A stretch of DNA of 64,000 nt from Eledone cirrhosa (Eukaryota), in NCBI GenBank assembly GCA_964016885.1, contig OZ024741.1, forward strand, positions 414,160,001-414,224,000. The letters are read 5' to 3'. Each line of letters begins with the position of its first letter. Position 1 is the first letter of the stretch. Below, piece after piece: positions 3,001 through 36,560 of the stretch. Position numbers and translations under genes: made by a program. Under the pieces are notes generated by a model, which ran no database searches, had not been told where the DNA came from, and worked only from the letters and a program-made list of their open reading frames with translations.

Positions 3001-5352
3001 ATGTTGTTTAACCCATTCACTACCATATTTCTAATGTAAGACACTGTCTATGTTGTTTAATCCTTTCATTACAATATTTCTAATGTAAGACACTGTCTAT
3101 GTTGTTTAACCCTTCCATTACCATATCTCTAATATAAGACACTGTCTATGTTGTTTAACCCTTCCATTACCATATTTCTAATGTAAGACACTGTCTATGT
3201 TGTTTAACCCTTTCATTACCATATTTCTAATGTAAGACACTGTCTATGTTGTTTAACCCTTTCATTACCATATTTCTAATGTAAGACACTGTCTATGTTG
3301 TTTAACCCTTCCATTACCATATTTCTAATGTAAGACACTGTCTATGTTGTTTAACCCTTCCATTACCATATTTCTAATGTAAGACACTGTCTATGTTGTT
3401 TAACCCTTCCATTACCATATTTCTAATGTAAGACACTGTCTATGTTGTTTAACCCTTTCATTACCATATTTCTAATGTAAGACACTGTCCATGTTGTTTA
3501 ACCCTTCCATTACCATATTTCTAATGTAAGACACTGTCTATGTTGTTTAACCCTTCCATTACCATATTTCTAATGTAAGACACTGTCTATGTTGTTTAAC
3601 CCTTCCATTACCATATTTCTAATGTAAGACACTGTCTATGTTGTTTAACCCTTCCATTACCATATTTCTAATGTAAGACACTGTCTATGTTGTTTAACCC
3701 TTCCATTACCATATTTCTAATGTAAGACACTGTCTATGTTGTTTAACCCTTCCATTACCATATTTCTAATGTAAGACACTGTCTATGTTGTTTAACCCTT
3801 CCAGTACCATATTTCTAATGTAAGACACTGTCTATGTTGTTTAACCCTTCCATTACCATATTTCTAATGTAAGACACTGTCTATGTTGTTTAATCCTTCC
3901 ATTACCATATTTCTAATGTAAGACACTGTCTATATTGTTTAACCCTTTCATTACCATATTTCTAATGTAAGACACTGTCTATGTTGTTTAACCCTTTCAT
4001 TACCATATTTCTAATGTAAGACACTATCTATGTTGTTTAACCCTTTCATTACCATATTTCTAATGTAAGACACTATCTATGTTGTTTAACCCTTTCATTA
4101 CCATATTTCTAATGTAAGACACTGTCTATGTTGTTTAACCCTTTCACTACCATATTTCTAATGTAAGACACTCTCTATGTTGTTTAACCCTTCCACTACC
4201 ATATTTCTAATGTAAGACAACATCTATGTTGTTTAACCCTTTCATTACCATATTTCTAATGTAAGACACTGTCTATGTTGTTTAACCCATTCACTACCAT
4301 ATTTCTAATGTAAGACACTGTCTATGTTGTTTAATCCTTTCATTACAATATTTCTAATGTAAGACACTGTCTATGTTGTTTAACCCTTTCATTACCATAT
4401 TTCTAATGTAAGACACTGTCTATGTTGTTTAACCCTTCCATTACCATATTTCTAATGTAAGACACTGTCTATGTTGTTTAACCCTTTCACTACCATATTT
4501 CTAATGTAAGACACTGTCTATATTGTTTAATCCTTTCATTACAATATTTCTAATGTAAGACACTGTCTATGTTGTTTAACCCTTCCATTACCATATCTCT
4601 AATATAAGACACTGTCTATGTTGTTTAACCCTTCCATTACCATATTTCTAATGTAAGACACTGTCTATGTTGTTTAACCCTTTCATTACCATATTTCTAA
4701 TGTAAGACACTGTCTATGTTGTTTAACCCTTTCATTACCATATTTCTAATGTAAGACACTGTCTATGTTGTTTAACCCTTCCATTACCATATTTCTAATG
4801 TAAGACACTGTCTATGTTGTTTAACCCTTCCATTACCATATTTCTAATGTAAGACACTGTCTATGTTGTTTAACCCTTCCATTACCATATTTCTAATGTA
4901 AGACACTGTCTATGTTGTTTAACCCTTTCATTACCATATTTCTAATGTAAGACACTGTCCATGTTGTTTAACCCTTCCATTACCATATTTCTAATGTAAG
5001 ACACTGTCTATGTTGTTTAACCCTTCCATTACCATATTTCTAATGTAAGACACTGTCTATGTTGTTTAACCCTTCCATTACCATATTTCTAATGTAAGAC
5101 ACTGTCTATGTTGTTTAACCCTTCCAGTACCATATTTCTAATGTAAGACACTGTCTATGTTGTTTAACCCTTTCATTACCATATTTCTAATGTAAGACAC
5201 TGTCTATGTTGTGTAACCCTTCCATTACCATATTTCTAATGTAAGACACTGTCTATGTTGTTTAACCCTTTCATTACCATATTTCTAATGTAAGACACTG
5301 TCTATGTTGTTTAACCCTTCCATTACCATATTTCTAATGTAAGATACTGCCT
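1..5352. repeat. 49-bp tandem satellite (consensus AGACACTGTCTATGTTGTTTAACCCTTTCATTACCATATTTCTAATGTA), ~109 copies, extends beyond window start
   Basis: Direct 49-bp periodicity. Rare variants recur at a 1666-bp (34 x 49) offset, e.g. AGACACTGCC at 1 and 1667, CGCTTTCACT at 121 and 1787. Confidence 0.97.
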
Positions 5353-5553
5353 ATGATTTTCAAATAATTTTGAAAATACTTGAGTATTCTGAGAGATTTA
5401 GTAATACAACTAATGTTCTCATTATTAGTCTTGTATTTGGAATATAACTTAACAAAGTTAAGTTACGTTCCATTATAATAGAGGGTTTTTAGATGAATAT
5501 AAACAGTTCTATATCTTAGAACCAGATGTGGTTTCAAGCTTGGAAAGGGTTAG
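5311..5553. mobile_element. Degenerate TTAA-type (piggyBac-like) MITE whose left end is the last satellite monomer
   Basis: Left end TTAACCCTTCC at 5311; right end GGAAAGGGTTAG at 5542-5553 is its inverted complement. The interior continues without a break from the monomer sequence. Confidence 0.6.
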
Positions 5554-6470: not shown

Positions 6471-6930
6471 CATCATCATCATCATCACTGTTTTACGTCT
6501 GTTCTTCCACGCTAGCATGGGTTAAACAGGTTATCCTGTTGTGGGCAGTGTCTGGTTGGCTGACCTTGCCTTGCTCATACAGGAACTGATTTTGGCTTGA
6601 TTTCTACAGCTGGATGCCCTTCCTAACACCAACCCCATTTACAGTGAGTGCTGGGTGCTTTTTTCCATGGCGCCTACATGTCCACTTTACAGTGGAAGGT
6701 GTGGGGGCATAGTGTCTATATGCTTCAGATTCGGTTTGTACCCATGGGAGGTTGGGTACTCTGTATTACTGCGTGACGCCAGAGGTCACGGTCGTGTGTC
6801 ATCGCCTTTGAGAGGTGTAATTGGGTAAGGTCGGCTTTTATCACCTCATCCCAGGTCTTCTTGGGTCTCCCTACTCCGTGGTTTCCATTGACTTCTAGTG
6901 CTCTGCACCTTTTTATGCAGCTGTCATCCT
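6471..6930 (-). mobile_element. 3' fragment of an RTE-clade LINE with (GAT)n tail
   Basis: Minus strand near 6840-6880 reads GRPKKTWDEV, a typical RTE ORF C-terminal motif. (CAT)n on the plus strand at 6471-6486 marks the tail. Confidence 0.6.
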
Positions 6931-7125
6931 TTTGGAAATTTTGGAAATGTCAATGAAATTAACCCCAGTACTTTACCATTTTATTTTCCCCTGAAGGATA
7001 AAAGACAAGAATAATAATTTCTAATGTCTGTTATATTACATCAAGTAATGTTGAACTGAAGAAAGTTTACATTTCTCATGACTAAAGTACTATTATTACC
7101 ACTGAAGTCTCTCTTAATCCTTTAG

Positions 7126-7703
7126 CATTTACATTACTCTATATATACTATTGTATTTTCACAGTAAAGGCTTTACCTCACATAATATCTCACATAACAT
7201 TAACATTACTCTATGTATACTATTGTATTTTCACAGTAAAGGCTTTACCTCACATAATACTTCACATAACAATTACATTACTCTATATATACTATTGTAT
7301 TTTCACAGTAAACGCTTTACCTCACATAATATCTCACATAACATTTACATTACTCTATATATACTATTGTATTTTCACAGTAAAGGCTTTACCTCATATA
7401 ATACCTCGCATAACATTTACATTACTCTATATATACTATTGTATTTTCACAGTAAAGGCTTTACCTCACATAATATCTCACATAACATTTACATTACTCT
7501 ATATATACTATTGTATTTTCACAGTAAAGGCTTTACCTCACATAATATCTCACATAACATTTACATTACTCTATATATACTATTGTATTTTCACAGTAAA
7601 GGCTTTACCTCACATAATATCTCACATAACATTTACATTACTCTATATATACTATTGTATTTTCACAGTAAAGGTTTTACCTCACATAATATCTCACATA
7701 ACA
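7126..7703. repeat. 72-bp satellite block 1 (~8 copies)
   Basis: Unit CATTACTCTATATATACTATTGTATTTTCACAGTAAAGGCTTTACCTCACATAATATCTCACATAACATTTA; 24-aa periodicity in the spurious ORF 7151-7729. Confidence 0.95.
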
Positions 7704-7914
7704 TCTCGTATACGAGAGACGTGTGTTGACGTGTGTGAACAAGCTCGGCTACCGAGTCGGATTTACTTACTCAAAAAGTGAGTTTTGATTAATTTTTTAT
7801 ACTGTAATATACGTTAACCCCTTGCCTTGGTCGTCAAACTTTGAGTTTATTTATTTTCGCCCCTTTTTGGGGCGAATTTTCCAGTTAAAAATTTATTACG
7901 GCAAACTAATAGAA

Positions 7915-9657
7915 ATGGACGGAATTTTCACATCTCATCCTAACGTGAAAGCCACGCCCCCTAAGAAAGGTGATACAGAGAAGCTAGAAGCACAAGGCTC
8001 TAAGTCTTCCCTCCTCACTTCTGCAAAAGAAACATGGAACACGGAATTAAAAGAAAAATTTGTAGAAATGGGTGAAAACCCAGAAAGTCACATAAACGCA
8101 GACAAAAACATCAACGACAATAACAGCAATAGTCACAACACCAACCAAGGAAAAAATAACGATAACACCAAACAAAGTGAACCCACTACTGGTACCTCCT
8201 TTGCACAGGCGGTCCGGAAAACACAAACCTGCAAGCAACTGGACATTACAACTCTGAGAGAAAAGATGAAGGAAGCGAAACAGTATGTAACTTTCAAAGA
8301 AGGAGGAGACTTCACAATCACCTCCCCACAAGAAATCAAAAGAGACACGACGCTAAGAACGATATCTTTCAGAACAATTTCCAACATAACAAGGAAACCA
8401 ACTCAATTATCCCAAAAAGAGATTGAGCTGGTCCTAAAAAATGTGTGGAGTGATATATCGTTCATACAAAAAGGGCCACTCTATGGGAATATAACGGTCC
8501 TAATGAAGGATCAATTGACGGCCAGGAAATACTCTGTGGCACCAATTGTTTCCAAGATATATACATTTTTCCCCACATATTTAGGGAAAAGAACGCAGAA
8601 GATAAGGGTCTCCGGAATCCGGCCAAATGCATGCATTTCCTGGGTACTAACAGGATTTTTAGAAGACGAGGACGGAATCCTCTCAGTAGGAGAAGTCACC
8701 ACAGACGTTTTCGGCGGTTTGAGCGTGGAGGTTCTGGTCCAAATGAGACCAGAACGAATCGCTAGAATACCACAGAGGGTGTCCCTCGATGGAGAAACAT
8801 TTATATATATTTCAGCCGAGGGTAGGAGGCCCATATGTTACTACTGTTCAAGCAGGGGTCATCTAAGGGCTGCTTGTCCTCAATTGACAAAAAAAAAGGC
8901 TCTTTTGCCTACACCCCACACACCACCACCGCCACCACCACCACCACCACCACCTCCACCACCACCACCACAACAACAACAAAAACAACAGGGAAAAATA
9001 ACACAAGACACGGCCCCACCCAAAACAACTCCCAAAACACACACAAATACAACAAAACCCCAAAATACACCACTACCCGACAGCACGGACGAGGACCCAG
9101 CGGAAACGGCACCTAGTGACGAAGAGGGGGAACCCTTCCAACCTGTAAAAAGGAAAAAAAGAAAGCACCACTCGAACATAAACGAAACAAACACACAACC
9201 ACCAACAAAAACAAAACAAACAGAACAAACAAAATCCGCCCCACCCCAAAACATAACACATACAACAAAACGTAAGCACACACAAGAACAACAAACAAAC
9301 ACAACACAAATAAAACAGTATACATACATTAACACAAATAACAAAGAACTAGTAAAAACAATACACAAAGACCCTTTGGTGGAAACTGAAGGGCAATTCT
9401 TTGCAAGCGCGGCCAACAAACCGCATTTAAAAATGATAAGACTCCCAATGGACACCTATGCAAAACTAAGAGAGAACTTTCCTGAGGACGTGGGGAAAAC
9501 ATGTACTCGACCCTATAACCGCGTCCTCTTGAAACGTTTCCCCACCCACACCTCACCAAACACCCCCACTCCACCACAGAACAACACCCCACCAAACAAC
9601 CCCTCCAATACGCCCATGGATATTGTGCAACCTGCTCCTCAGGAGCCGAACAGGTAG
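7915..9657 (+). CDS. LINE ORF1 (gag-like nucleic-acid-binding protein with CCHC zinc knuckle)
   Basis: CYYCSSRGHLRAAC fits CX2CX4HX4C; Pro/Gln/Thr-rich linker; basic KRKKRK. First ATG at 7915 (MDGIFTSH) is conserved in copy 2 at 14389, while the upstream extension is not. Confidence 0.88.
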   Translation: MDGIFTSHPNVKATPPKKGDTEKLEAQGSKSSLLTSAKETWNTELKEKFVEMGENPESHINADKNINDNNSNSHNTNQGKNNDNTKQSEPTTGTSFAQAVRKTQTCKQLDITTLREKMKEAKQYVTFKEGGDFTITSPQEIKRDTTLRTISFRTISNITRKPTQLSQKEIELVLKNVWSDISFIQKGPLYGNITVLMKDQLTARKYSVAPIVSKIYTFFPTYLGKRTQKIRVSGIRPNACISWVLTGFLEDEDGILSVGEVTTDVFGGLSVEVLVQMRPERIARIPQRVSLDGETFIYISAEGRRPICYYCSSRGHLRAACPQLTKKKALLPTPHTPPPPPPPPPPPPPPPPQQQQKQQGKITQDTAPPKTTPKTHTNTTKPQNTPLPDSTDEDPAETAPSDEEGEPFQPVKRKKRKHHSNINETNTQPPTKTKQTEQTKSAPPQNITHTTKRKHTQEQQTNTTQIKQYTYINTNNKELVKTIHKDPLVETEGQFFASAANKPHLKMIRLPMDTYAKLRENFPEDVGKTCTRPYNRVLLKRFPTHTSPNTPTPPQNNTPPNNPSNTPMDIVQPAPQEPNR

Positions 9658-9678
9658 GTCCTTCCTCTTTTAACCAAC

Positions 9679-12600
9679 ATGGCTGATATAAGAGTTGGGT
9701 TTCTGAATGTACGTGGCCTGGGACTGTCTTGGAAACAAGGCAAACTTTTAAACGATCTCAGGTCACATAGAATGGATGTAATGGCTATTTGCGAGTCCAG
9801 GATCAGCAGCGAGCACCAACTGGCGCCCCTCTTCGACGACTTTGAGATCTTCGCATCTCTCTGTCAACCGGGGGGTGGGGGTGGAGTTGTCGTTCTGCTG
9901 CGAAAACACCTGGGCCTCGCCATACAGAAGGTGCACCTGGACCCGGAGGGTCGACTGGTGGTTTTAGACGTCGGCAGTAGTGAAAGTGGAGCCCTTAGAC
10001 TAATAGCTGTGTACGCCCCTTTTTGGGCAGCGCGGCCGGAATACTTCCAACGTCTGGAAACTTTTCTGGGAACGTCCCGCTCCTTGCTTTTAGTGGGGGA
10101 CTGGAATGGTATCCTGGATGCACGTTGGGACTATGTAGGGGCATGTGCCAATAGAGGGGGGTGTAAAAGCCTCAAAAGGTTAATCGGCCGATTTGACCTG
10201 GCCGATAGATATCGACTAGATTTTCCGACTGTACCACTATGGACGTGGACCAATCGCAGTGGAACATCTAGGTCGTACCTAGATAGGGTCCTAGTTAGAG
10301 AGAACGATAGGGACACATTTAGCTGTCCAAAAATGTTCATGGTTGACTATTCGGATCACAAGTTAGTGACCTGCATAGCCAACCTTGATAGAACCCATAG
10401 ACAGGGACCCGGTTACTGGAAGCTGAACTTGTCCTTACCGAGAAGCAAAGCTTACAGTAAACGGATTAGCACGTTAGTTAAGCAGAATTTGACAGGGGCA
10501 ATTGTCAACAACAGGTGGTGGAGCTCTCTTAAGAGAGCAATTAGAATAGAATCGATAGGTTTTAGTCAGGAATTAGCAAGGGATAGGAACAAGACGGAAA
10601 GGGAATTAGTAGATAGAGTAGAAGAGGCGATTAGGAGTGGCAATGTAGCCGGCGTGCTGGCATCAAGAATGGCCTTAGACCAGTTCTTTGAGGTGAAGCA
10701 TGAAGGCTGCGTTGTCAGGAGTAAAATACGTGCTCTGGGTAATGAGGGAGCCAAAGCTGTAAGCTGGGCCCGAGTGACAGAGGCAAAAAGTGGGAACAAG
10801 TCCACGATTCGGTCTTTGAAGGACCAGGATGGGCGTGTGATCCTTGAACCTGGGCAGATGTGTGCGGCCTTTCAGCGGCACTTTGCACGACTGTTCGAGA
10901 GGGGCGGCGCGCCGGGTGAGACTATGGATTTCAATCCATACCTCGACGGTCTGCCGCGCCTCTCGGACGCGGAGGCGAAGTCCTGCGAAAGGACGATTTC
11001 AGCTGCTGAGATAGGGGCGGCGCTGAGCCAATGCGGCAAACGCAAATCCCCGGGTCTCGATGGTCTACCATACGAGCTATATGTAGCGATGCCGGACTTG
11101 TTCTCCGATATCCTCGAAGCGGTCTACTGCAACTGGCAGCAGAACGGGAGAATTCCCAGTTCTGTGACCAAGGGCGTAGTTACGCTGGTGAGGAAGGATG
11201 AGAACAAGGGGGATGACATAAGTAACTTCAGGCCCATAACTCTGCTAAATACAGAGTTAAAGATTTTGGCCAAGGTGTTAGCGAAGAGGTTGGCGCTTGT
11301 CGTTGGAAACCTGGTGGGAGAAGCGCAGACATGCGCAATCCCGTCCAGGTCCATTCACGACAATCTCCACCTTATGCGATACATCATAGAGAGGGTAGGG
11401 AATGAACCCGGCTTTGGTGGGGCCCTGATCAACTTGGATCAATCTAAAGCTTTCGATAGGGTTGACCATCGTTACCTGGATGCGGTGCTCGCGGCGGCAG
11501 GCTTCGGACCCGTTTTCAGGGGTTGGATTGCTGCGATGCACAGCAGCAACGTCTGCTCAAGGGTCAAGGTGAACGGCCACCTCTCGGAGCCGTTCCAAAT
11601 CATGCGATCCATCCGACAGGGATGCCCTCTCTCCTCCCTACTGTATGTGCTGGCTCTTGAGCCACTACTGCGGAAGTTGGAGCGGTTGCAGGGCATCCCT
11701 TTGGAACCGGGATTGCAGAAAGCGGCGTCGGCCTACGCCGATGACGTGACAGTAATGGTGTCGAAAACCTCGCAAATCGGTGAGATCGGCACCTTACTGG
11801 AGGAATATGAAAGGTTTACAGGAGCCAAGCTGAACCGGGACAAGTCCGTCGGTTTGCAACTCGGAACATGGAGAGGCAAACCGATGCCCTCCAACGACGT
11901 CGTCGGACGCTGGACGGAGGGCCCGGTGAAGCTGCTTGGGGTCTGGTTCGGACCAGACCTCCAGGTGGAGAAAAACTGGAACGAGGTAACGGCCAGGGTG
12001 TTTGCACTCACCCAGAAGTGGGCCCAGTGCAAACTATCCCTGAAAGGTCGAGCGGAGGTGGCGAATACTTATATAGCATCCGTCATCTACTACCGCTTGA
12101 CCGTCGTGCCTTGCCCAGTGAAAAGACTCGCCAAAATGGAGTGCGCGCTGTTCCAATTTCTTTGGAACAAGCGGACCCCTTTGGTGAGGAGATCCATCTG
12201 CTGTCAACACCCTTCGAAAGGAGGGCTGGGGATGCCGTGGCTACAGATGCGTAAACACGCATTAAGGCTACGGCACCTCCAGGTATTCCTCACCGGTCAA
12301 CCGGTGTGGGCCCCGTTTGTGAGGCGAGCCTTTCCCAGACTCGTCTCGCTCACCGAGCTGCAATCCTGGGTCAAGCAAAGACCGAGAAAAGTGGGCGACT
12401 GGCACATTGAATGTGCCCAGGCGCTCACGGCCCTCTGGAAAGCGGACCCGGCAATCAGTGGAGACTCCACCTCGACATTCTATAGAGGGTTGGTACGCAG
12501 CAGGTGCGACGATGCTCTCGGAGAAGCTCTAGGCATGGAGGAAGATGAACTGGCCAGTCTGTTCGGTAGGACGTTTGGCCCTGGACCGATGGACAACTTC

Positions 12601-13116
12601 CAAAAGTCCCTGGCTTGGCAGTGCTACCGAGGGGCTCTACCCGTTCGAGACAAGCTCCACAGGCATGGGAGCCTGGGTAGAGATCCTTTGAATAAGATCT
12701 GTCCGAGATGCGTGCATGATGACGAAACCGTTGCGCACGCATTCGTACACTGCCCAGGCATTGCTGACCTGTGGGGCTATGTGGAACGACTACTGTCGAG
12801 GGTGGGACCAATCCGGTTGACCACCGAGTCCATTGTCACGATCAAACCGCCTCCCCCTTTCAAAAACGAAGGAGAGGCGGTTTTTCTCTGTGTGGTAGCC
12901 ATGGCTAAAGAAGTTGTATGGTGGACGAGGCTGAAAGGGCTGAGGTCAGACACCTTTCTCTCCGGCCAACAACTGGTCCCCTTTTTCAAATACCATTTTA
13001 AAAGAAGGATCAGAATGGAGAGAGAGGTGCTCTACCCCAGCAAGTTTTATGAAAGGTGGGTGAAAGTAGGGAGAATGGCCAGAGTGAATGGGTCTTCTCT
13101 CTATATCAGCCTGTAG
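9679..13116 (+). CDS. LINE ORF2: APE-like endonuclease + reverse transcriptase + C-terminal zinc finger (1145 aa)
   Basis: Endonuclease motifs LNVRG, AVYAP, GDWN, SYLDR, SDH. GPGYWKLN is typical of Tx1/L1. RT motifs KSPGLDG, FRPITLLN, DQSKAFDRV, QGCPLS, YADD. C-terminal CPRC...HAFVHC. Confidence 0.96.
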   Translation: MADIRVGFLNVRGLGLSWKQGKLLNDLRSHRMDVMAICESRISSEHQLAPLFDDFEIFASLCQPGGGGGVVVLLRKHLGLAIQKVHLDPEGRLVVLDVGSSESGALRLIAVYAPFWAARPEYFQRLETFLGTSRSLLLVGDWNGILDARWDYVGACANRGGCKSLKRLIGRFDLADRYRLDFPTVPLWTWTNRSGTSRSYLDRVLVRENDRDTFSCPKMFMVDYSDHKLVTCIANLDRTHRQGPGYWKLNLSLPRSKAYSKRISTLVKQNLTGAIVNNRWWSSLKRAIRIESIGFSQELARDRNKTERELVDRVEEAIRSGNVAGVLASRMALDQFFEVKHEGCVVRSKIRALGNEGAKAVSWARVTEAKSGNKSTIRSLKDQDGRVILEPGQMCAAFQRHFARLFERGGAPGETMDFNPYLDGLPRLSDAEAKSCERTISAAEIGAALSQCGKRKSPGLDGLPYELYVAMPDLFSDILEAVYCNWQQNGRIPSSVTKGVVTLVRKDENKGDDISNFRPITLLNTELKILAKVLAKRLALVVGNLVGEAQTCAIPSRSIHDNLHLMRYIIERVGNEPGFGGALINLDQSKAFDRVDHRYLDAVLAAAGFGPVFRGWIAAMHSSNVCSRVKVNGHLSEPFQIMRSIRQGCPLSSLLYVLALEPLLRKLERLQGIPLEPGLQKAASAYADDVTVMVSKTSQIGEIGTLLEEYERFTGAKLNRDKSVGLQLGTWRGKPMPSNDVVGRWTEGPVKLLGVWFGPDLQVEKNWNEVTARVFALTQKWAQCKLSLKGRAEVANTYIASVIYYRLTVVPCPVKRLAKMECALFQFLWNKRTPLVRRSICCQHPSKGGLGMPWLQMRKHALRLRHLQVFLTGQPVWAPFVRRAFPRLVSLTELQSWVKQRPRKVGDWHIECAQALTALWKADPAISGDSTSTFYRGLVRSRCDDALGEALGMEEDELASLFGRTFGPGPMDNFQKSLAWQCYRGALPVRDKLHRHGSLGRDPLNKICPRCVHDDETVAHAFVHCPGIADLWGYVERLLSRVGPIRLTTESIVTIKPPPPFKNEGEAVFLCVVAMAKEVVWWTRLKGLRSDTFLSGQQLVPFFKYHFKRRIRMEREVLYPSKFYERWVKVGRMARVNGSSLYISL

Positions 13117-13429
13117 GTGAAAGAAGAGGAAAAAGCGGAGACGAGGGAAGCACCTACTCTTTGTGCTCCTGAGGAGAAGGGTTACACATTTTTTCCGGGG
13201 TGTGTGCGACCCATGTTAATGCCCCCTCCCTATTGAGGACTTCGTTTGTTGTTGTTATTTCATTGTTATATTTTTGTACTCGTTAATTATATGTAAACTT
13301 CCCCCCTTGTATCTGTCCCTACCTTTTGTGCCCTAGTGGCAAATAAAGAAACCACTCTATATATACTATTGTATTTTCACGGTAAAGCCTTTACCTCACA
13401 TAATATCTCACATTACTCTATATATACTA

Positions 13430-13575
13430 CTAACAGAATGGCCCTGTGTCACTCGGGATTTGCTCTAGGGTTCTTATATATTTGATATATATTTATCCTT
13501 ATCGAGCCTCGTGAAATAAATACGTTTGTTTATATTTTGTTATTGTGTATGCAAAAATATCTGCACACGAATATA

Positions 13576-13621
<46 letters not shown>

Positions 13622-13903
13622 TAACAGATTAAAGTTTAAGCAAAGAATCGCTGCTTTCACCCTTAACGGGGTCTTCTGAAACTATAAAAAAATCAATCTG
13701 TGAACGCAGAAGTCAATATTTTGAAAAACGTTACACACTATATATATATATACACACACACACACTATATATACATATATACACACACACAGCATCATAA
13801 TGTCGAAATGCAGAGAACCAAACATACAGAGATATTATAAGGGTGCAATGTTGTAGCTATGTATCTATCTAAAAAGAGACAGACTAAGAATTATAGAGAG
13901 AGA
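13430..13903 (-). mobile_element. Probable non-autonomous Helitron-like insertion in the satellite
   Basis: Minus-strand end CCCGAGTGACACAGGG-CCATTCTG-TTAG|T resembles the hairpin+CTAG end at 21120-21147. The 5' boundary (TCTCTCTCTATAA) is uncertain. Confidence 0.5.
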
Positions 13904-13921
13904 TCGTTAAATCACTTAATG

Positions 13922-14177
13922 CTATTGTATTTTCAAAGTAAAGGCTTTACCTCACATAATACCTCACATATCATTTACATTATTCTATAAATACTATTGT
14001 ATTTTCACAGTAAAGGCTTTACCTCACATAATATCTCGCATAACATTTACATTACTCTATATATACTATTGTATTTTCACAGTAAAGGCTTTACCTCACA
14101 TAACATTTACATTACTCTATATATACTATTGTATTTTCACAGTAAAGTATTTACCTCACATAATATCTCACATAACA
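13922..14177. repeat. 72/60-bp satellite block between the two LINE copies
   Basis: Same monomer as 7126-7703, including a 60-bp variant lacking a 12-bp internal duplication. Confidence 0.93.
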
Positions 14178-17100
14178 TCTCGTATACGAGAGGCGTGCGT
14201 TGACGTGTGTGAACAAGCTCAGCTACCGAGTTGGATTTACTTACTCAAAAGTGAGTTTTGATTAATTTTTTATACTGTAATATACGTTAACCCCTTGCCT
14301 GGGTCGTCAAACTTAGAGATTATTTATTTTCGCCCCTTTGTTGCGGCGAATTTTCCTTTGAAAAATTTATTACGGCAAACTGATAGAAATGGACGGAATT
14401 TTCACATCTCATCCTAACGAGAAAGCCACGCCCCCTAAGAAAGGTGATACAGAGAAGCTAGAAGCACAAGGCTCTAAGTCTTCCCTCCTCACTTCTGCAA
14501 AAGAAACGTGGAACACGGAATTAAAAGAAAAATTTGTAAAAATGGGTGAAAACCCAGAAAGTCACATAAACGCAGACAAAAACAACAATGACAATAACAG
14601 CAATAGTCACAACACCAACCAAGGAAAAAATAACGATAACACCAAACAAAGCGAACCCACTACTGGTGCCTCCTTTGCACAGGCGGTCCGGAAAACACAG
14701 ACCTGCAAGCAACTGGACATTACAACTCTGAGAGAAAAGATGAAGCAAGCAAAACAGTATGTAACTTTCAAAGAAGGAGGAGACTTCACAATCACCCCCC
14801 CCCCCACAAGAAATCAAAAGAGACACGACACTAAGAACGTTATCTTCCAGAACAATTGCCAATATGACAAGGAAACCAGCTCAATTATCCCAAAAAGAAA
14901 TTGAGCTGGTCCTAAAAAATGTGTGGAGTGATATATCGTTCATACAAAAAGGGCCACTCTATGGGAATATAACGGTGCTAATGAAGGATCAATTGACGGC
15001 CAGGAAATATTCTGTGGCGCCAATTGTTTCCAAGCTACACACATTTTCCCCCACATATTTGGGGAAAAGAACGCAGAAAATAAGAGTCTCCGGAATCCGG
15101 CCAAATGCATGCATTTCCTGGGTACTAACAGGATTTTTAGAAGACGAGGACGAAATCCTTTCAGTAGGAGAAGTCATCACAGACGTTTTCGGCGGTTTGA
15201 GCGTGGAGGTTCTGGTTCAAATGAGACCAGAACGAATAGCTAGAATACCACAGAGGGTGTCCCTCGATAGAGAAACATTTATATACATTTCAGCCGAGGG
15301 TAGGAGGCCCATATGTTACTACTGTTCAAGCAGGGGTCATCTAAGGGCTGCCTGTCCTCAATTGACAAAAAAAAGGCTCTTTTGCCTACACCCCACACAC
15401 CACCACCGCCAGCACCACTACCACCACCACAACAACAACAACATGGAAAAATAACACAAGACACGGCCCCACCCAAAACAACTCCAAAAACACACACAAA
15501 CACAACAAAACCCCAAAATACACCACTACCCGACAGCACGGACGAGGACCCAGCTGAAACGGCACCTAGTGACGAAGAGGGGGAACCCTTCCAACCTGTA
15601 AAAAGGAAAAAAAGAAAGCACCACTCGAACATAAACGAAACAAAGACACAACCACCAACAAAAACAAAACAAACAGAACAAACTAAATCCGCCCCACCCC
15701 AAAACATAACACATACAACAAAACGCAAGCACACACAAGAACAACAAACAAACACAACACAAATAAAACAGTATACATACATTAACACAAATAACAAAGA
15801 ACTAGTAAAAACAATACACAAAGACCCTTCGGTGGAAACTGAAGGGCAATTCTTTGCAAGCGCGGCAAACAAACCGCATTTAAAAATGATAAGACTCCCA
15901 ATGGACACCTATGCAAAACTAAGAGAGAACTTTCCTGAGGACGTGGGGAAAACATGTACTCGACCCTATAACCGCGTCCTCTTGAAACGTTTCCCCACCC
16001 ACACCTCACCAAACACCCCCACCCCACCACAGAACAACACCCCACCAATACGCCCATGGATATTGTGCAACCTGCTCTTCAGGAGCCGAAGAGGAAGGAC
16101 CTTCCTCTTTTAACCAACATGGCTGATATAAGAGTTGGGTGTCTGAATGTACGCGGCCTGGGACTGTCTTGGAAACAAGGCAAACTTTTAAACGATCTCA
16201 GGTCGCATAGAATGGATGTAATGGCTATTTGCGAGTCCAGGATCAGCAGCGAACGCCAACTGGCGCCCCTCTTCGACGACTTTGAGATCTTCGCATCTCT
16301 CTGTCAACCGGGGGTGGGGGTGGAGTTGTCGTTCTGCTGCGAAAACACCTGGGCCTCGCCATACAGAAGGTGCACCTGGACTCGGAGGGTCGACTGGTGG
16401 TTTTAGACGTCGGCAGTAGTGAAAGTGGAGCCCTTAGACTAATTGCTGTGTACGCCCCTTTTTGAGCAGCGCGGCCGGAATACTTCCAACGTCTGGAAAC
16501 TTTTCTGGGAACGTCCCGCTCCTTGCTTTTAGTTGGGGACTGGAATGGTATCCTGGATGCACGTTGGGACTATGTAGGGGCATGTGCCAATAGAGGGGGT
16601 GTAAAAGCCTCAAAAGGTTAATCGGCCGATTTGACCTGGCCGATAGATATCGACTAGATTTTCCGACTGTACCACTATGGACGTGGACCAATCGCAGCAG
16701 AACATCTAGGTCGTACCTAGATAGGGTCCTAGTTAGAGAGAAGGATAGGGACACATTTAGCTGTCCAAAAATGTTCATGGTTGACTATTCGGATCACAAG
16801 TTAGTGACCTGCATAGCCAACCTTGATAGAACCCCTAGACAGGGACCCGGTTACTGGAAGCTGAACTTGTCCTTACTGACAAGCAAAGCTTACAGCAAAC
16901 GGATTAGCATGTTAGTTAAGCAGAGTTTGACAGGGGCAATTGTCAACAACAGGTGGTGGAGCTCTCTTAAGAGAGCAATTAGAATAGAGTCGATAGGTTT
17001 TAGTCAGGAATTAGCAAGGGATAGGAACAAGACGGAAAGGGAATTAGTAGATAGAGTAGAAGAGGCGATTACGAGTGGCAATGTAGCCAGCGTGCTGGCA

Positions 17101-19482
17101 TCAAGAATGGCCTTAGACCAGTTCTTTGATGTGAAGCACGAGGGCTGCGTTGTCAGGAGTAAAATACGTGCTCTGGGTAATGAGGGAGCCAAAGCTGTTA
17201 GCTGGGCCCGAGTGACAGAGGCAAAAAAGTGGGAACAAGTCCACGATTTGGTCTTTGAAGGACCAGGATGGGCGTGTGATCCTTGAACCTGGGCAGATGT
17301 GTGCGGCCTTTCAGCGGCACTTTGCACTACTGTTCGAGAGGGGCGATGCGCCGGGCGAGACTATGGATTTCAATCCATACCTCGACGGTCTGCCGCGCCT
17401 CTCGGACGCGAAGTCCTGCGAAAGGCCGATTTCAGCTGTTGAGATAGGGGCGGCGCTGAGCCAATGCGGCAAACGCAAATCCCCGGGTTTCGATGGTCTA
17501 CCATACGAACTATATGTAGCGATGCCGGACTTGTTCTCCGATATCCTCGAAGCGGTCTACTGCAACTGGCAGCAGAACAGGAGAATTCCCAGTTCTGTGA
17601 CCAAGGGCGTAGTTACGCTGGTGAGGAAGGGTGAGAACAAGGGGGATGACATAAGTAACTTCAGGCCCATAACTCTGCTAAATACAGAGTTAAAGACTTT
17701 GGCCAAGGTGTTAGCGAAGAGGTTGGCGCTTGTCGTCGGAAACCTGGTGGGAGAAGCGCAGACATGCGCAATCCCGTCCAGGTCCATTCACGACAATCTC
17801 CACCTTATGCGATACATCATAGAGAGGGTAGGGAATGAACCCGGCTTTGGTGGGGCCCTGAGCAACTTGGATCAATCTAAAGCTTTCGATAGGGTTGACC
17901 ATTGTTACCTGGATGCGATGCTCACGGTGGAAGGCTTCGGACCCATTTTCAGGGGTTGGATTGCTGCGATGCACAGCAGCAACGTCTGCTCAAGGGTCAA
18001 GGTGAACGGCCACCTCTCGGAGCCGTTCCAAATCATGCGATCCATCCGACAGAGATGCCCTCTCTCCTCCCTTCTGTATGTGCTGGCTCTTGAGCCACTA
18101 CTGCGGAAGTTGGAGCGGTTGCAGGACATCTCTTTGGAACCGGGATTGCACAAAGCGGTGTCGGCCTACGCCGATGACGTGACAGTAATGGTGTCGAAAA
18201 CCTCGCAAATCGGTGAGATCGGCACCTTACTGGAAGAATATGAAAGGTTTACAGGAGCCAAGCTGAACCGAGACAAGTCCGTCGGTTTGCAACTCGGAAC
18301 ATGGAGAGGCAAACCGATGCCCTCCAACGACGTCGTCGGACGCTGGACGGAGGGCCCGGTGAAACTGCTTGGGGTCTGGTTCGGACCACACCTCCAGGTG
18401 GAGAAAAACTGGAACGAGGTAACGGCCAGGGTGTTTGCACTCACCCAGAAGTGGGCCCAGTGCAAACTATCCCTGAAAGGTCGAGCGGAGGTGGCGAATA
18501 CTTATATAGCATCCGTCATCTACTACCGCTTGACACATTGAAAGTGCCCAGGCTCTCACGGCCCTCTGGAAAGCGGACCCGGCAATCAGTGGAGACTCCA
18601 CCTCGACATTCTATAGAGGGTTGGTACGCAGCAGGTGCGACGATGCTCTCGGAGAAGCTCTAGGCATGGAGGAAGATGAACTGGCCAGTGTTCGGTAGGA
18701 CGTTTGGCCCTGGACCGATGGACAACTACCAAAAGTCCCTGGCTTGGCAGTGCTACCGAGGGGCTCTACCCGTTCGAGACAAGCTCCACAGGCATGGGAG
18801 CCTGGGTAGGGATCCTTTGAATATGATCTGTCCGAGATGCGTGCATGACGACGAAACCGTTGCGCACACATTCGTACACTGCCCAGGCATTGCTGACCTG
18901 TGGGGCTATGTGGAACGACTACTGTCGAGGGTGGGACCAATCCGGTTGACCACCGAGTCCATTGTCACGATCAAACCGCCTCCCCCTTTCAAAAACGAAG
19001 GAGAGGCGGTTTTTCTCTGTGTGATAGCCATGGCTAAAGAAGTTGTATGGTGGACGAGGCTGAAAGGGCTGAGGTCAGACACCTTTCTCTCCGGCCAACA
19101 ACTGGTCCCCTTTTTCAAATACCATTTTAAAAGAAGGATCAGAATGGAGAGAGAGGTGTTCTACCCCAGCAAATTTTATGAAAGGTGGGTGAAAGTAGGG
19201 AGAATGGCCAGAGTGAATGGGTCTTCTCTCTATATCAGCCTGTAGGTGAAAGAAGAGGAAAAAGAGGAGACGAGGGAAGCACCTACTCTTTGTGCTCCTG
19301 AGGAGAAGGGTTGCACATTTTTTCCGGGGTGTGTGCGACCCATGTTAATGCCCCCTCCCTATTGAGGACTTCGTTTGTTGTTGTTATATCATTGTTATAT
19401 TTTTGTACTCGTTAATTATATGTAAACTTCCCCCCTTGTATCTGTCCCTACCTTTTGTGCCCTGGTGGCAAATAAAGAAATC
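14178..19482 (+). pseudogene. Tx1-group LINE copy 2: both ends present but inactivated
   Basis: Highly similar to copy 1. Frameshifts split ORF1 (14389, 14864, 15313) and ORF2 (16056, 16771, 17255, 18676). TGG>TGA near 16463. A ~300-bp deletion at ~18533 corresponds to copy 1 ~12102-12402. Confidence 0.93.
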
Positions 19483-20066
19483 ACTCTATATATACTATTG
19501 TATGTTCACAGTAAAGGCTTTACCTCACATAATATCTCACATAACATTTACACTACTCTATATATACTATTGTATTTTCACAGTAAAGCCTTTACCTCAC
19601 ACAACATTTACATTACTCTGTATATACTATTGTATGTTCACAGTAAAGTCTTTACCTCACATAACATTTACACTACTCTATATATACTATTGTATTTTTA
19701 CAGTAAAGTCTTTACCTCACATAACATTTACATTACTCTATATATACTATTGTATTTTCACAGTAAAGTCTTTACCTCACACAACATTTACATTACTCTA
19801 TATATACTATTGTATGTTCACAGTAAAGTCTTTACCTCACATAATATCTCACATAACATTTACACTACTCTATATATACTATTGTATTTTCACAGTAAAG
19901 TCTTTACCTCACATAACATTTACATTACTCTATATATACTATTGTATTTTCACAGTAAAGTCTTTACCTCACACAGCATTTACACTACTCTATATATACT
20001 ATTGTATGTTCACAGTAAAGGCTTTACCACACATAATCTCACATAACATTTACATTACTCTATATA
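19483..20066. repeat. Satellite block dominated by 60-bp variant monomers
   Basis: 20-aa periodicity in ORF 19465-20046; AAAGTCTTTACC and TATGTTCAC variants. Confidence 0.93.
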
Positions 20067-21147
20067 TCATAATCTATAAAGCTCAGTGTGTGGTCATGCT
20101 CCTTTCTTATAGATATCTACGATATAGAATTTCTTCAATTGAAATTTACAATTCAGTATTCGAAATAGTTTCGATTGCGTCTTGGCACATCTCATTTTTT
20201 TAATTTCACCCACAATTACGCAAAAAATAGATAAAACTCAATATTTTACGATTTTTCTCTGTCATTTAAACTGCTAAACTCTTTCCACTACAATTCAAAA
20301 TCTATACAACGTCATACTTTCTGCTACTTTCTCTTTCCAAGCTTGATGGTGATACTGTCCGTTTTACTCTCTCATATCATCTGCTTTTTCCTCTATCTAC
20401 AACCCACACATTTTGCTACTTTCTCTTTTATACTTCAAATTATTACATTTCATACGAAACGACAATTATTCAAAAGCAACAGATACATTTATTCAACAAC
20501 AAGCGATAAATCTTTTTTAAAACCTCTTTTCCAAACGCATACAAACACACTTCAACAACAACAATCTGCCTTTTATAAACAATAATATCCTCTATGAGGT
20601 CACTAACCTGCTAGAAACAGCAGCTAACTCTCCCCCATACCACACCCCTCCCTACTGTCTTAAATTTAGAAAACATATCTTCTATGAGGTCACTAAACCT
20701 GCTAGAAACAGCAGCTAACTCTCCCCCATATCACACCACTCCCTACTGTCTTAAATTTAGAAAACACATATCCTCTATGAGGTTACTAAACCTGCTAGAA
20801 ACAGCAGCTAACTCTCCCTCATATCACAACCCTCCTTACTGTCTTAAATTTAGAAAACACACAGACAACCATGCAGAACAACTCCATCGCAGCTCTGTTG
20901 TTCGGCTGGCATCGTCTACGCGCGTGTTGCGCAAGTACTGTGAAACAAGAAATTTCAACACTTTTTTGCACAGAGATAATATCCATAGGCGAAACTACAA
21001 TTGTCACTGCTGGCGCAGCTCCTGCTTCCAGGTCTGCAATTCATTCACCCAGTGCCTGGCAGACAAAAAAGTGCTGCTATAAAATGGGTGGTGCAACCTA
21101 ACTTTGGTAACTTAATGACCCCGAGCAACGCCGGGCTTTAATGCTAG
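20067..21147 (+). mobile_element. Non-autonomous Helitron
   Basis: Begins TC after A. Ends with GC-rich hairpin CCCGAGCAACGCCGGG (21120-21135) and CTAG (21144-21147). No target-site duplication. Interrupts one satellite monomer at ACTCTATATA|(T)ACTATT. Contains three ~90-bp tandem units at 20586-20860. Confidence 0.8.
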
Positions 21148-21680
21148 AACTATTATATTTTCACAGTAAAGGCTTTACCTCACATGATATCTCACATAAC
21201 ATTTACATTACTCTATAATACTATTGTGTTTTCACAGTAAAGGCTTTACCTCACATAATATCTCACATAACATTTACATTACTCTATATATACTATTGTA
21301 TTTTCACAGTAAAGGCTTTACCTCACATAATATCTCACATAACATTTACATTACTCTATATATACTATTGTATTTTCACAGTAAAAGCTTTACCTCACAT
21401 ATCTCACATAAGATTTACATTACTCTATATATACTATTGTATTTTCACAGTAAAGGCTTTACCTCACATAACTCACATAACATTTACATTACTCTATATA
21501 TATACTATTGTATTTTCACAGTAAAGGCTTTACCTCACATAATATCTCACAGCATTTACATTATTCTATATATACTATTGTATTTTCACAGTAAAGGCTT
21601 TACCTCACATAATATCTCACAGCATTTACATTATTCTATATATATTGTATTTTCACAGTAAAGGCTTTATTTTACATAAT
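21148..21680. repeat. 72-bp satellite final block
   Basis: Same monomer; decays into unique sequence leading to the right TIR. Confidence 0.93.
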
Positions 21681-21849
21681 TATCCATGTAATTTTGATGT
21701 CACTTATTTTGACAACAATACCTTAATATAGATATGAGTAGCCAGTTACAGCTAGTTTGAACAGAAAGAGGTGAGAGAATTCTGGCCGGATATGGCCGGT
21801 TTGAATGCTAAAGGGTTAAGCCAGAAGGATTGTGAGGATGATGTTAATG

Positions 21850-22245
21850 TTGGTTTCATGGCATGTAGCTACTGAATGTACAAGACTCTCTCCCTGGACA
21901 GGACACCAGTCCATCACAGGGTTAAAGTTTGTCTCAAGACCAGATGTTCATCAGGCTGGTGCTTATCTCAGTTTCCATGGTATGAGGTGACTGACAGTAC
22001 AAGACTTCCTTCTGGACAGGACACCAGTCCATCACAGGGTTAAACCCTCAGCTATTACTAGTACTCGTTTTCAGCTGAGTATACTGTAGCAAAGTGAAAT
22101 GAAATGTTTTGTTCAAGAACACAACACACAACCCAGTCCAAGAATCAAACCCACAACATTAGATTATAAGTCCAAGAACTTTACCACTTGGCCAATGTGA
22201 AATGCAGTGTTTTGTTCAAGAACACAACACACAACCCAGTCCAAC
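21850..22245 (-). mobile_element. Degenerate SINE-like remnant with internal duplications
   Basis: CTGGACAGGACACCAGTCCATCACAGGGTTAAA occurs twice and TTTTGTTCAAGAACACAACACACAACCCAGTCCA occurs twice. tRNA-like head region on the minus strand. Confidence 0.45.
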
Positions 22246-23599: not shown

Positions 23600-26500
23600 G
23601 AAAACACTGTACCCACAACAACTGACAATAAAGAAACTGAAAAAACTCTGGGAAACTAAATCAGAAAAACCTGCCATCCCCTGCACATAATCATAGACTG
23701 GAATCAAGGTACAAATTGTTGTCCTTGAATGCACGTAGTCTATGCAATAAGATTCATCTTTTTGACTCCTACGTCAAAAGTATCAACCCTAACTCCATTA
23801 CAGTCACGGAAATTTGGGCACATCCCTTACTCTGTGATGGGGTTTTCAGCATAACTGGCTACAACCTGTTTCGTTAAGACCGCATTAATCGTTGTGGTGG
23901 TGGTGTAATGGTCTACATTCGGTCAAATTTGTCGGCAATTCCTTGTGTTGATTTGAACCAATCACAACAGGAAGTTTTTTTCTGTGATATACATATGACC
24001 ATGTGAACACTGCTACTTGGAGTCGTTTACCATCTCCCAAATTACCATCAGGACACTCAACTTTGTGAAATCCTCAGATTTGCTGCCAGGAAAACAGCCA
24101 CTTATGTTTTTATTGCAGGAGACTTCAATCACCCTGAGATTGAATGGGAAACCTTTCGTTGGCCGCTAAGTGCAAATGACTTCCTTGAGCTAGTGCTGGA
24201 CTCAAATTGGTCCCAAGTAGTCACCTCCCCAACAAGAGGTGACAACACTTTGGACCTACTCTTCACCACTACTCCTGAAGCGGTCATTAGTGTTACTGCT
24301 GAGGAACCTTTAGGTGACTCTGATCATGCTATGATCATTGCCAATCTATCCCTCATGGGCAGTAACAAGAACCACAACCATCTCCAAACTGCTCACTTTG
24401 ACTGGAATAAAGCAGACTGGAACTGTTACTGCACCAAGTTGCAACAGCCAAATTGGCTTGAGTTCTACGACTCTGGAGATGTCAACACTGTACTCCAGAA
24501 CATCCTGAGCTCAATATGGACAGCATGTGCAGCATCGGTGCCATGTAAGCGGAAAAAACATCCCAAAAGTGCAATTTGGGAGACTGCAGCAGTCCGTCTT
24601 GCCAGAAAAGAACGTCGCAATGCTGAGCGTGAGTACAAACTGCACAAATCAGACATCAATAGGAAGAGGCGAAATAAATCGTCCAACCACCTCAAACAGG
24701 TGACAAAAAAGGCAGTGCTTCAATTTGAGCAGCGCATAGCAACCAGCCCTGACAGTAAGGTGATCTGGAAGTATGTTCACTCAAAGCAGAGGCCTCACTC
24801 TCCAGTTGGTCCTCTTCACAATCCCCACACAAGCCAGGTTACTGATGACCCCAAGGAATGTGCAGAGCTCTTTGCTGAATGCTATGCAGGCATTTTCACT
24901 ATTGAAGACCAGACTGTACCGTCTCCACCACATATGACACCGGATTCTATTACAACTATGGAATTTACACCTGCAATGCTGCGACATCACCTTAAAAATA
25001 AACGCAACCATGCCTCTCCTGGTCTTGATGGTGTTATGTACCTGCTTCTTAAACGTGGTGGGTACTTCCTTCTGCACCAGCTATCACACTTCTTCCAATT
25101 CTGTCTGAACAACGGTGCTACTCCAGAACAGTGGAAAACTGCCAGTGTTCAAAAAGGGTGACCACACATCACCTGTGAACTATCGTCCAGTCAGTCTTAC
25201 TAGTTGCATTGCCAAACTGATGGAATCCTGTGTCAGAGAAACACTTTGGAAATTCTGGAACTCTCAGAGTCTTATCCGGCCCTCGCAATTTGGATTTATC
25301 CCCAACTCCAGCTGCTGTGATCAACTTATTGAGTTTCTTGAAGACATCACCGTGATCACTGATGGCGGCTCATGGGTGGATGTTGTTTACCTTGACTTTG
25401 CTAAGGCTTTCAATTCTGTGCCACACAAAAGGCTTATGGCAAAACTCTCTGCAATGGGTGTGAAGGATGATCTTTTTAACTGGTTGAAGTCCTTTGTTCT
25501 CAGTCGAAGAGAGGTAGTCACGGTTCTGGGACAGCATTCCTCACCATATGAGATGTCATCTGGTGTACTACAGGGATCTGTTCTTGGCCCCCTTTTGTTT
25601 GTGGCATATATTAATGACATAGATGCCAACTTAAAGAATGCCACAGTACTAAAGTACGCAGATGACATCAAGCTGTACCTTGAGATAAAAAGGACAGATC
25701 CTGAACACTATAGATCTTGCTTGCAGTCTGACCTGGACACAATGCAACGATGGATCTCAGACTGGCAACTCAAGCTAGCTGTGGACAAGTGCACCACCAT
25801 GCATTTTGGGAGTAAAAACCCAGCGTCCACATCACTAATATCAAGAAGTCTTCTTGTGAACGTGACCTGGGCATTACGGTCAGCAGCAATTTGTGTTGGA
25901 CGAAGCACGTCTCTAAAATTGTCAAGAGGGCCGAGGGTGTCTTAGCATCACTCAGCAAGACCTTTGTCAGCCGCTCTCCAGCTATTTATTTAAGGCTGTA
26001 CATGGCTATGGTGCGGCCACACTTAGAATTTGCATCACCAGTCTGGAACCCTATCTTGCTCAGAACATTGACCGCCTGGAAACTGTTCAGAGACGTGCAA
26101 CCAAGCGAATACCCTCCATCAGGCCTCTACCATACTCTGAACGCCTTGCTTCCCTGGGCATGGATACATTGAAGCTCCGACGCCTGGCAACTGACTTGGT
26201 AAACACCCACAAGATTATTAACCATCTTGACAACAACAACCCTGAGTACCTTTTTGATTTCCATGTGTCTAACACACGTGGGCATGCCCACACCACAAAG
26301 TCAGAAAACAGCATAGTTCCCATGACTTTCGGAAACATTTTTTCACGCTCAGAGTTGCTGAAGCATGGAACACACTACCTGCATCAGTCGTTAGCTGTCG
26401 AGAGATTGCATCCTTTAAAACCTCCATGCTTCCTGAGATTCGCCAACACTACACCTAATGTTCCACCTCCATACACATACACACATGTATATCATGACTC

Positions 26501-36130: not shown

Positions 36131-36560
36131 TAGAGTGTGGCAGAGATAAATCCGGAATTTTTCGTGGCAACAGAGCCAAGCGTAGCAAGGTATCCAGAGT
36201 GTCATCAGATAGTAGTACACCTGAGTAGCTGTCCAGTGATGAGGTGCTGACATGTCACCAGATTATCAAGGTGCTGTTGGGGAGAACCTTCACACTGGCC
36301 ACAAAAGTAAGGGAATCATTGAGTCGTTTAAATACCCTAAAAGCATGGTTTACAACCTTGCAAAGACAAGGACAATATCAAGCCAGAGTGTAAGATGTGG
36401 CACCACTAGGACACCAGAGTTTGTCCCTGACAGCCTCCATCTTGGTACCAACAAGGTGGCTAATGGGAGACCCTATGTCTTTCAATAGGACTCCACCAGT
36501 GGCCACATGGCCACGATCACCAAGGCCTGGTCTGTCACCAATGTACTATACCACTGGTCA
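36131..36560 (+). pseudogene. Internally deleted Tc1/mariner (maT-like) transposon fragment
   Basis: TA-flanked left end. N-terminal remnant IIESFKYPKSMVYNLAK...RTPEFV is fused to catalytic-region remnant VANGRPYVFQ*DSTSGH...TKAWSVTNVLYHWSP (compare the FQQDSAPAH motif). Confidence 0.7.

Follow-up and report, generated by a model that had tools for sequence, protein, structure and literature searches.

The internal tandem repeats of the Xenopus DNA element Tx1D hold the insertion site of Tx1L, a long interspersed nuclear element (LINE) whose target-site duplication (TSD) is about 23 bp long. Xenopus Tx1 inserts in Tx1D, and Tx1D is a family of non-autonomous piggyBac elements (PMC4494074, PMC1950540). 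We describe a comparable arrangement in a cephalopod, Eledone cirrhosa, within a 64,000-nucleotide stretch of contig OZ024741.1 (hereafter, the window): a 14.7-kb unit in which the TTAA-flanked terminal inverted repeats (TIRs) of a putative miniature inverted-repeat transposable element (MITE) enclose an array of 72-bp repeats, and in which two LINEs of one family, LINE1 and LINE2, sit inside the array. The organisation is that of Tx1L and Tx1D in Xenopus laevis, with a LINE that has two open reading frames (ORFs) and an apurinic/apyrimidinic endonuclease (APE), a fixed insertion site, and a non-autonomous piggyBac-type element as the target. The analogy with Tx1L and Tx1D, which an original prediction made from the letters of this DNA had proposed, is apt. 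Here, however, the host is an invertebrate, the target sequence is unrelated, the target has suffered a 7-bp truncation in place of the TSD of Tx1L, and two LINEs together with Helitron pieces share a single array; the likeness is one of organisation, not of measured kinship.

Other Tx1 lineages have comparable habits. In crocodilians they target Mariner, Harbinger and long terminal repeat elements, and satellites are among the known Tx1 targets (PMC4494074, PMC4640811); Tx1-Mar lies in Mariner-N4_AMi and Tx1-9_AMi in Harbinger elements (PMC4494074). As at our locus, the landing site of these two is a high-copy non-autonomous DNA transposon or satellite, and target truncation is known there, but the crocodilian cases involve other transposon superfamilies and old copies, whereas here the target is the tandemly amplified head of a MITE and one of the LINEs is intact. 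Publications already describe several Tx1 lineages with DNA transposons or satellites as their targets (PMC4494074), and the analogy is less rare than it had been taken to be. The array, too, has precedents: the Xenopus T2-MITE Xmix/Xstir carries an amplified internal repeat (PMC6004289, PMC9659126), and arrays of piggyBac-related MITEs have been reported from coral (PMC2872659). Like Xmix/Xstir, our element is a TTAA MITE in which an internal segment became a tandem repeat, but the termini of Xmix are AGG (Kolobok type) and those here are CCC (piggyBac type), and the cited passages on Xmix mention no resident LINE. Among cephalopods, the annotation of Octopus vulgaris lists 80 L1-Tx1 families, 13 of them recently active, and 36 piggyBac families (PMC13282606); it shares both ingredients with our locus, and the words 'target' and 'nested' are absent from its main text and one supplement. 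Table 1 of that paper gives a piggyBac coverage of 3,666,023 bp, larger than the 2,175,404 bp of its TIR subtotal, and its other rows imply 366,023; we read the larger figure as a probable misprint rather than as a sign of long composites. The literature that we searched showed no cephalopod Tx1 for which a target is described, and the family may be recorded in Repbase or Dfam. Tx1-type targeting of DNA transposons and satellites and satellites born from MITEs are thus already known, and the present case adds a new example.

We consider it probable, with appreciable room for doubt, that a piggyBac-type MITE with an amplified head holds two independent, endonuclease-guided LINE insertions, and that it is the LINE, not the composite, that is mobile. 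Both LINEs are full-length and on the same strand, and their first and last positions border on identical bases of the repeat unit; at either site the unit has lost 7 bp and there is no TSD. Given a landing in the array, such a coincidence has a chance of 1/144, and two LINEs at the same base of the repeat make homing to that repeat likely. Over 5,335 aligned bases the two copies show 136 substitutions (2.55%). In ORF1, 27 of the 52 differences are synonymous, where a spectrum-matched neutral model predicts 14.6 (p = 0.00025), and dN/dS is 0.27; selection, acting in active source elements, therefore shaped part of the divergence. The array units that adjoin LINE1 differ from those that adjoin LINE2. 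Four public runs were aligned at 85% likeness to positions 7610-13425, a span that stops short of the long arrays, the right arm and the flanks: X2 (contigs) and X17 (raw reads of a reduced-representation library) from organism A, X7 from organism D, and X5. At 14 of 31 variant places LINE2 matches the letter of the runs and LINE1 does not, and the 1-bp gaps of LINE2 at 7773 and 8889 recur in X2 contigs with summed depths of 781 and 1,699. From sequence comparison, then, LINE1 and LINE2 are probably two independent insertions rather than the products of a duplication, a conclusion that rests on the ORF1 bias, and the residence of LINEs in the satellite, which the original prediction had recognised, extends to one fixed base. 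In organism B, a 603-bp contig with four differences and one gap relative to LINE1 crosses the 5′ junction into 29 letters of the repeat, and a 338-bp contig crosses the 3′ junction into 22 letters; their depths of 10.2 and 12.2 compare with 7.5-11 for the LINE body.

The history that we envisage would have begun when a ~204-bp piggyBac-type MITE landed at a TTAA and its head, the left subterminal segment, was amplified in place into the 72-bp array. Two insertions of the LINE family would have followed, both into one base of the unit through target-primed reverse transcription and with the 7-bp truncation, its APE endonuclease presumably nicking the bottom strand immediately before the unit's ACTCTATA head. 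Helitron pieces would have landed in AT-rich units, and LINE2 would have decayed afterwards while LINE1 stayed intact. On this account the array multiplies the target and may serve the LINE as a harmless landing pad.

The outer boundaries were assessed from the window itself. The left and right TIRs (7114-7129 and 21804-21819, each with its TTAA) differ in just one position, where the left TIR begins, and the 16-mer of TTAA plus TIR has just these two matches in the 64 kb when up to three mismatches are allowed. When the 22 kb at 5401-27500 were simulated by a Markov model, 6 of 200 runs produced a comparable inverted pair, so that the TIR pair taken by itself is no more than suggestive; weight is added by its exact bounding of the array. 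Between the outermost bases (7114 and 21819) lie five blocks of 72-bp repeats, both LINEs and two further inserts, and, as had been predicted, nothing of this set falls outside the matching ends. The left TIR is followed directly by the array's opening unit, and at the far side the final unit grades into the right arm, which is 146 bp long. Minus its four inserts, the element measures 2,184 bp, and reduced to a single unit head it would measure 204 bp, rather than the ~250 bp proposed earlier for the MITE consensus. Units are 72 bp long, with variants of 60-71 bp, and the monomer had no BLAST match elsewhere in the 64-kb window. Inside the element no long ORF was found apart from those of the LINEs, and 6800-22200 gave no Rfam match. 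No RNA data set was listed as containing the sequence, which carries no information about expression.

The runs from organism A place this structure in a family. In X2, 497 contigs (of 37,641 aligned), and in X17, 6,418 reads (of 247,445 aligned), depart from the window's sequence at 7630 into a TIR, TTAA and varied flanks, which identifies the unit head as the left end of a TTAA/CCC element that is interspersed in high copy number. At this left end the agreement among upstream flanks was 0.56-0.59 (0.56 in X2). The satellite thus sits inside a TTAA/CCC-ended family, and its placement within a DNA transposon stands as first proposed. X17 also contains 72-bp tandem joints (137 reads, 22 starts). 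In organism D, 18 X7 records aligned, none of them listed at a LINE junction and one with a 72-bp tandem joint; among metagenome and viral contigs the left-end motif had zero matches. By definition, piggyBac TIRs are ~12-19 bp long and start with a conserved C (PMC5381638). Our element has TTAA on both sides, a 12-bp TIR that begins with CCC in the family form and at the right end, and, judged at the left end, many copies with different flanks; it is likely to be a non-coding piggyBac-type MITE of ~204 bp. A Kolobok/T2-MITE assignment was rejected, as the termini are CCC/GGG and not the AGG/RR purine ends in the definition given by PMC6004289.

The X17 data bear on whether the two ends belong together. 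Ends of X17 molecules coincide with AATT at 8882, 11151 and 12155. Nearly half of the molecules (2,291 of 5,041) stop at 7690, a position at which the unit lacks AATT, and an AATT at the junction between unit and right arm (21678-21681) lies in register with that position. These cut sites give indirect support to the view that many copies have a head passing straight into the right arm and that both ends would thus belong to one ~204-bp element; the alternative is a unit variant that carries AATT at 7690. Features of the locus are collected in Table 1.

Table 1. Features of the composite element in the window (positions in the 64,000-nucleotide stretch).
Feature	Position	Strand	Basis
Left end: TTAA and 12-bp TIR, first TIR base T vs family C	7114..7129	+	sequence comparison
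Array block A: eight 72-bp units; unit head is the element's left subterminal sequence	7126..7704	+	
LINE1: intact full-length L1/Tx1-group element; no TSD, 7 bp of unit lost at site	7705..13353	+	
LINE1 ORF1: 580 aa, one CCHC knuckle, Pro/Thr/Gln-rich tail	7915..9657	+	
LINE1 ORF2: 1145 aa, uninterrupted; APE endonuclease, reverse transcriptase (YADD), zf-RVT	9679..13116	+	Pfam
Array block B: a single 61-bp unit plus part of another	13354..13429	+	
Insert with degenerate Helitron-like 3′ end; short near-duplication of unit at borders	13430..13917	-	
Array block C: includes a 60-bp variant unit	13918..14178	+	
LINE2: family of LINE1, same base and orientation; frameshifts, stop and 302-bp deletion in ORF2	14179..19482	+	
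Array block D: chiefly 60-bp variant units	19483..20066	+	
Non-autonomous Helitron-like insert: TC at 5′ end, hairpin plus CTAG at 3′ end, three 93-bp repeats inside, no TSD	20067..21147	+	
Array block E: ~7.5 units	21148..21669	+	
Unique right arm: first 20 bp alignable to repeat unit; subterminal palindrome near 21780-21801	21670..21803	+	
Right end: 12-bp TIR with intact GGG end, then TTAA	21804..21819	-	sequence comparison

Several observations weigh against the account of an amplified MITE with two independent, targeted insertions. The colinearity of the ends is a cut-site inference, and neither a transposase nor an empty site was seen. In ORF2, 23 of 65 differences between the LINEs are synonymous, compared with 19.3 expected (p = 0.18); this weak signal lowers the certainty of independent insertion, and it may reflect the decay of LINE2. 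A synonymous bias in ORF2 with p = 0.02, calculated while ignoring transition bias, was discarded in favour of the matched test, so that ORF1 alone counts. The repeat overlaps of the organism B contigs (29 and 22 letters) fall below our 31-letter bridging rule, and these junctions could stem from a handful of loci, perhaps just the orthologous locus. For loose ends the analysis covered 23 of 3,319 rows and for joints 15 of 341; among the rows listed, two from X17 (105 and 118 reads, the joint row of the second with a single start) have a LINE-like 3′ end that runs on into a (TCTA)n-like tract. Relatives of the LINE family therefore land elsewhere, and the X17 rows may belong to sister families.

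These last rows lend themselves to the best-surviving of the alternatives, which we nevertheless regard as unlikely: that the LINE prefers a short TCTAT or TA-rich motif found in many repeats (microsatellites, Helitron ends, the array), and that the array just supplies copies of it. Besides the (TCTA)n-like letters after LINE-like 3′ ends in X17, this fits the much greater depth of ORF2 than of ORF1 in X2, by tens to hundreds of times, which points to many related families, and the switching of Tx1 lineages between microsatellite and transposon targets (PMC4494074). At 85% likeness, however, the (TCTA)n rows may come from sister families, the organism B contigs run unbranched from the ends of the subfamily into the repeat at the depth of the LINE body, and the two 5′ junctions in the window are identical over a long context.

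A single LINE insertion copied by unequal crossing-over in the array would leave the shared site uninformative on targeting. Identical junctions, tandem orientation and common repeat flanks would be expected of such an event, the BLAST match between the copies extends ~270 bp into the upstream array, and ORF2 shows no significant synonymous bias. We nonetheless find a duplication improbable, given the ORF1 bias (p = 0.00025), the unlike flanking units, and the occurrence in X2 contigs of the gaps at 7773 and 8889, which assigns them to a wider subfamily and not to decay after duplication. More improbable again is that the ends derive from two copies of one MITE family, joined by ectopic exchange between arrays that each held a LINE of its own. 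Unit types do vary along the array (72-bp units in A and E, 60-bp units in C and D), and TTAA on both sides is expected from any two copies, but 60-bp variants flank LINE2 on both sides, as if one array had been split, and the targeting that we propose would hold regardless.

The state of the left end argues against movement of the whole. In the consensus of loose ends from both X2 and X17 the first TIR base is C, preceded by TTAA, and the T at the start of the window's left TIR is thus a mutation relative to the family. In piggyBac the first TIR cytosine is the conserved one, and removal of the terminal base abolishes excision (PMC5381638). Mobility of the composite is unlikely because its left TIR has lost the family's terminal C, and the 14.7-kb copy is likely to be stuck where it is, the cited case being a base removal and ours a substitution. 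The original prediction had allowed that the unit could move if its ends were recognised and that a C-to-T change might prevent this; the change is borne out by the C of the family form, and movement appears unlikely for this copy. That the composite is or was mobile all the same, a piggyBac transposase having moved the array with its LINE cargo and so spread even defective LINEs, is to us the least credible of the alternatives: the right TIR is intact, TTAA lies on both sides, and the frameshifting ORF1 gap at 8889 is common in X2 and absent in X5, as from passive amplification of a dead copy, but the left terminal C is lost, 14.7 kb exceeds the 1.7-8.5 kb of surveyed piggyBac elements (PMC5381638), and the gap, which falls within an A run next to a flagged repeat, is also explained by trans-mobilisation.

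We return to the LINEs that, on the reading we prefer, are the mobile components of the locus. ORF2 of LINE1 combines an APE endonuclease, a reverse transcriptase (RT) and a C-terminal zinc motif with no RNase H, which is the composition of the L1 group, and the best solved relative of ORF2 is human L1 ORF2p (E 3e-53, residues 5-857), far above R2. The protein matches of ORF2 are nearly all unnamed; the one named close match is from cuttlefish, at 53% over the RT region. In a quick-method tree of 73 RT segments (the RT-covering ones of P0003-P0083, plus LINE1), which holds no named Tx1 reference, LINE1 pairs with one 71%-identical protein inside a group of 39 rows, apart from three plant L1-like rows. 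Of 71 metagenome loci with an ORF2 alignment (mostly 23-35% identical), none shares DNA with the element ends, the untranslated regions of the LINEs or the inserts. Tx1-clade ORF1 proteins have RNA-binding domains and a CCHC knuckle, unlike those of the vertebrate L1 type. Our ORF1 has a zf-CCHC match with an E of 0.007, under the curated cut-off of Pfam, and no vertebrate L1 ORF1 family was listed for it; its N-terminal part resembles proteins with RRM and CCHC domains, and the look-alike clusters (Atlas) are of CCHC and ZCCHC3 type at 0.90-0.92, which is a lead only. No ORF1 homolog was found among 7,979 candidates. The LINE family is likely to belong to the Tx1 clade.

Some further observations concern these LINEs. 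A perfect 14-bp palindrome opens both at the 5′ junction (7704-7717, 14178-14191); because of it the first position of the LINE is uncertain by one base, and it may be related to the exactness of the 5′ end. Across 9744-13425 in X2, X5 and X17, the depth of the ORF2 bins exceeds that of the ORF1 bins by factors of tens to hundreds at 85% likeness. Sister LINE families in large number could lie behind this depth; some of them have 3′ ends that precede (TCTA)n-like tracts, and they could show a target switch. A 1-bp loss in an A run (8881-8889) of LINE2 frameshifts ORF1 downstream of the zinc knuckle. The loss at 8889 occurs in three X2 contigs that account for the summed depth given above (~2,000 for unbranched ORF1 contigs) and is absent in X5; many organism A copies may thus have a broken ORF1, at a site that adjoins a flagged repeat.

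The other residents of the array are the two inserts that had both been called Helitron-like. That description fits the insert at 20067-21147, which has the Helitron hallmarks and in which the base after CTAG is A where the unit has T, and half fits the one at 13430-13917, whose 3′ end is like that of the first but reads TTAG and whose other end lacks the TC start. Beyond the composite, the window is a satellite-dense region. Long satellites occupy 36534-51065 (14.5 kb, with a period of 23/46/69 bp) and 53429-64000 (>10 kb, 42-bp period), and a 49-bp satellite lies within 1-5553. The 49-bp unit contains a TIR-like motif, TTAA plus CCCTTT, with an inverted counterpart at 5543-5553 whose TTAA is one base off; the satellite is probably a second piggyBac-type MITE, its left end amplified to >5 kb. 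A third LINE at 23700-26430, decayed, of another clade and outside the element, has Exo_endo_phos_2 and RVT_1 domains, and we take it to be CR1/L2-like.

A bolder possibility, which we think doubtful, is that a cephalopod Tx1-like lineage reached the lifestyle of Tx1L and Tx1D independently, with strict specificity for the amplified head of one piggyBac MITE, and that composites also spread through a piggyBac transposase. Spread of whole composites would account for the many copies with a frameshifted ORF1, and, if the lineage is independent and its composites do spread, the family would offer a young, countable system in which to ask whether composites transpose as units. Unless mobility of the composite is shown, the locus implies no new mechanism. 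What it does provide is an extension of transposon-targeting by Tx1-like LINEs to a cephalopod genome, in which a satellite born from the end of a MITE would afterwards have become a landing pad, and an intact, apparently young pair of ORF1 and ORF2 with a precise target, which should be useful for learning how APE endonucleases change their specificity.

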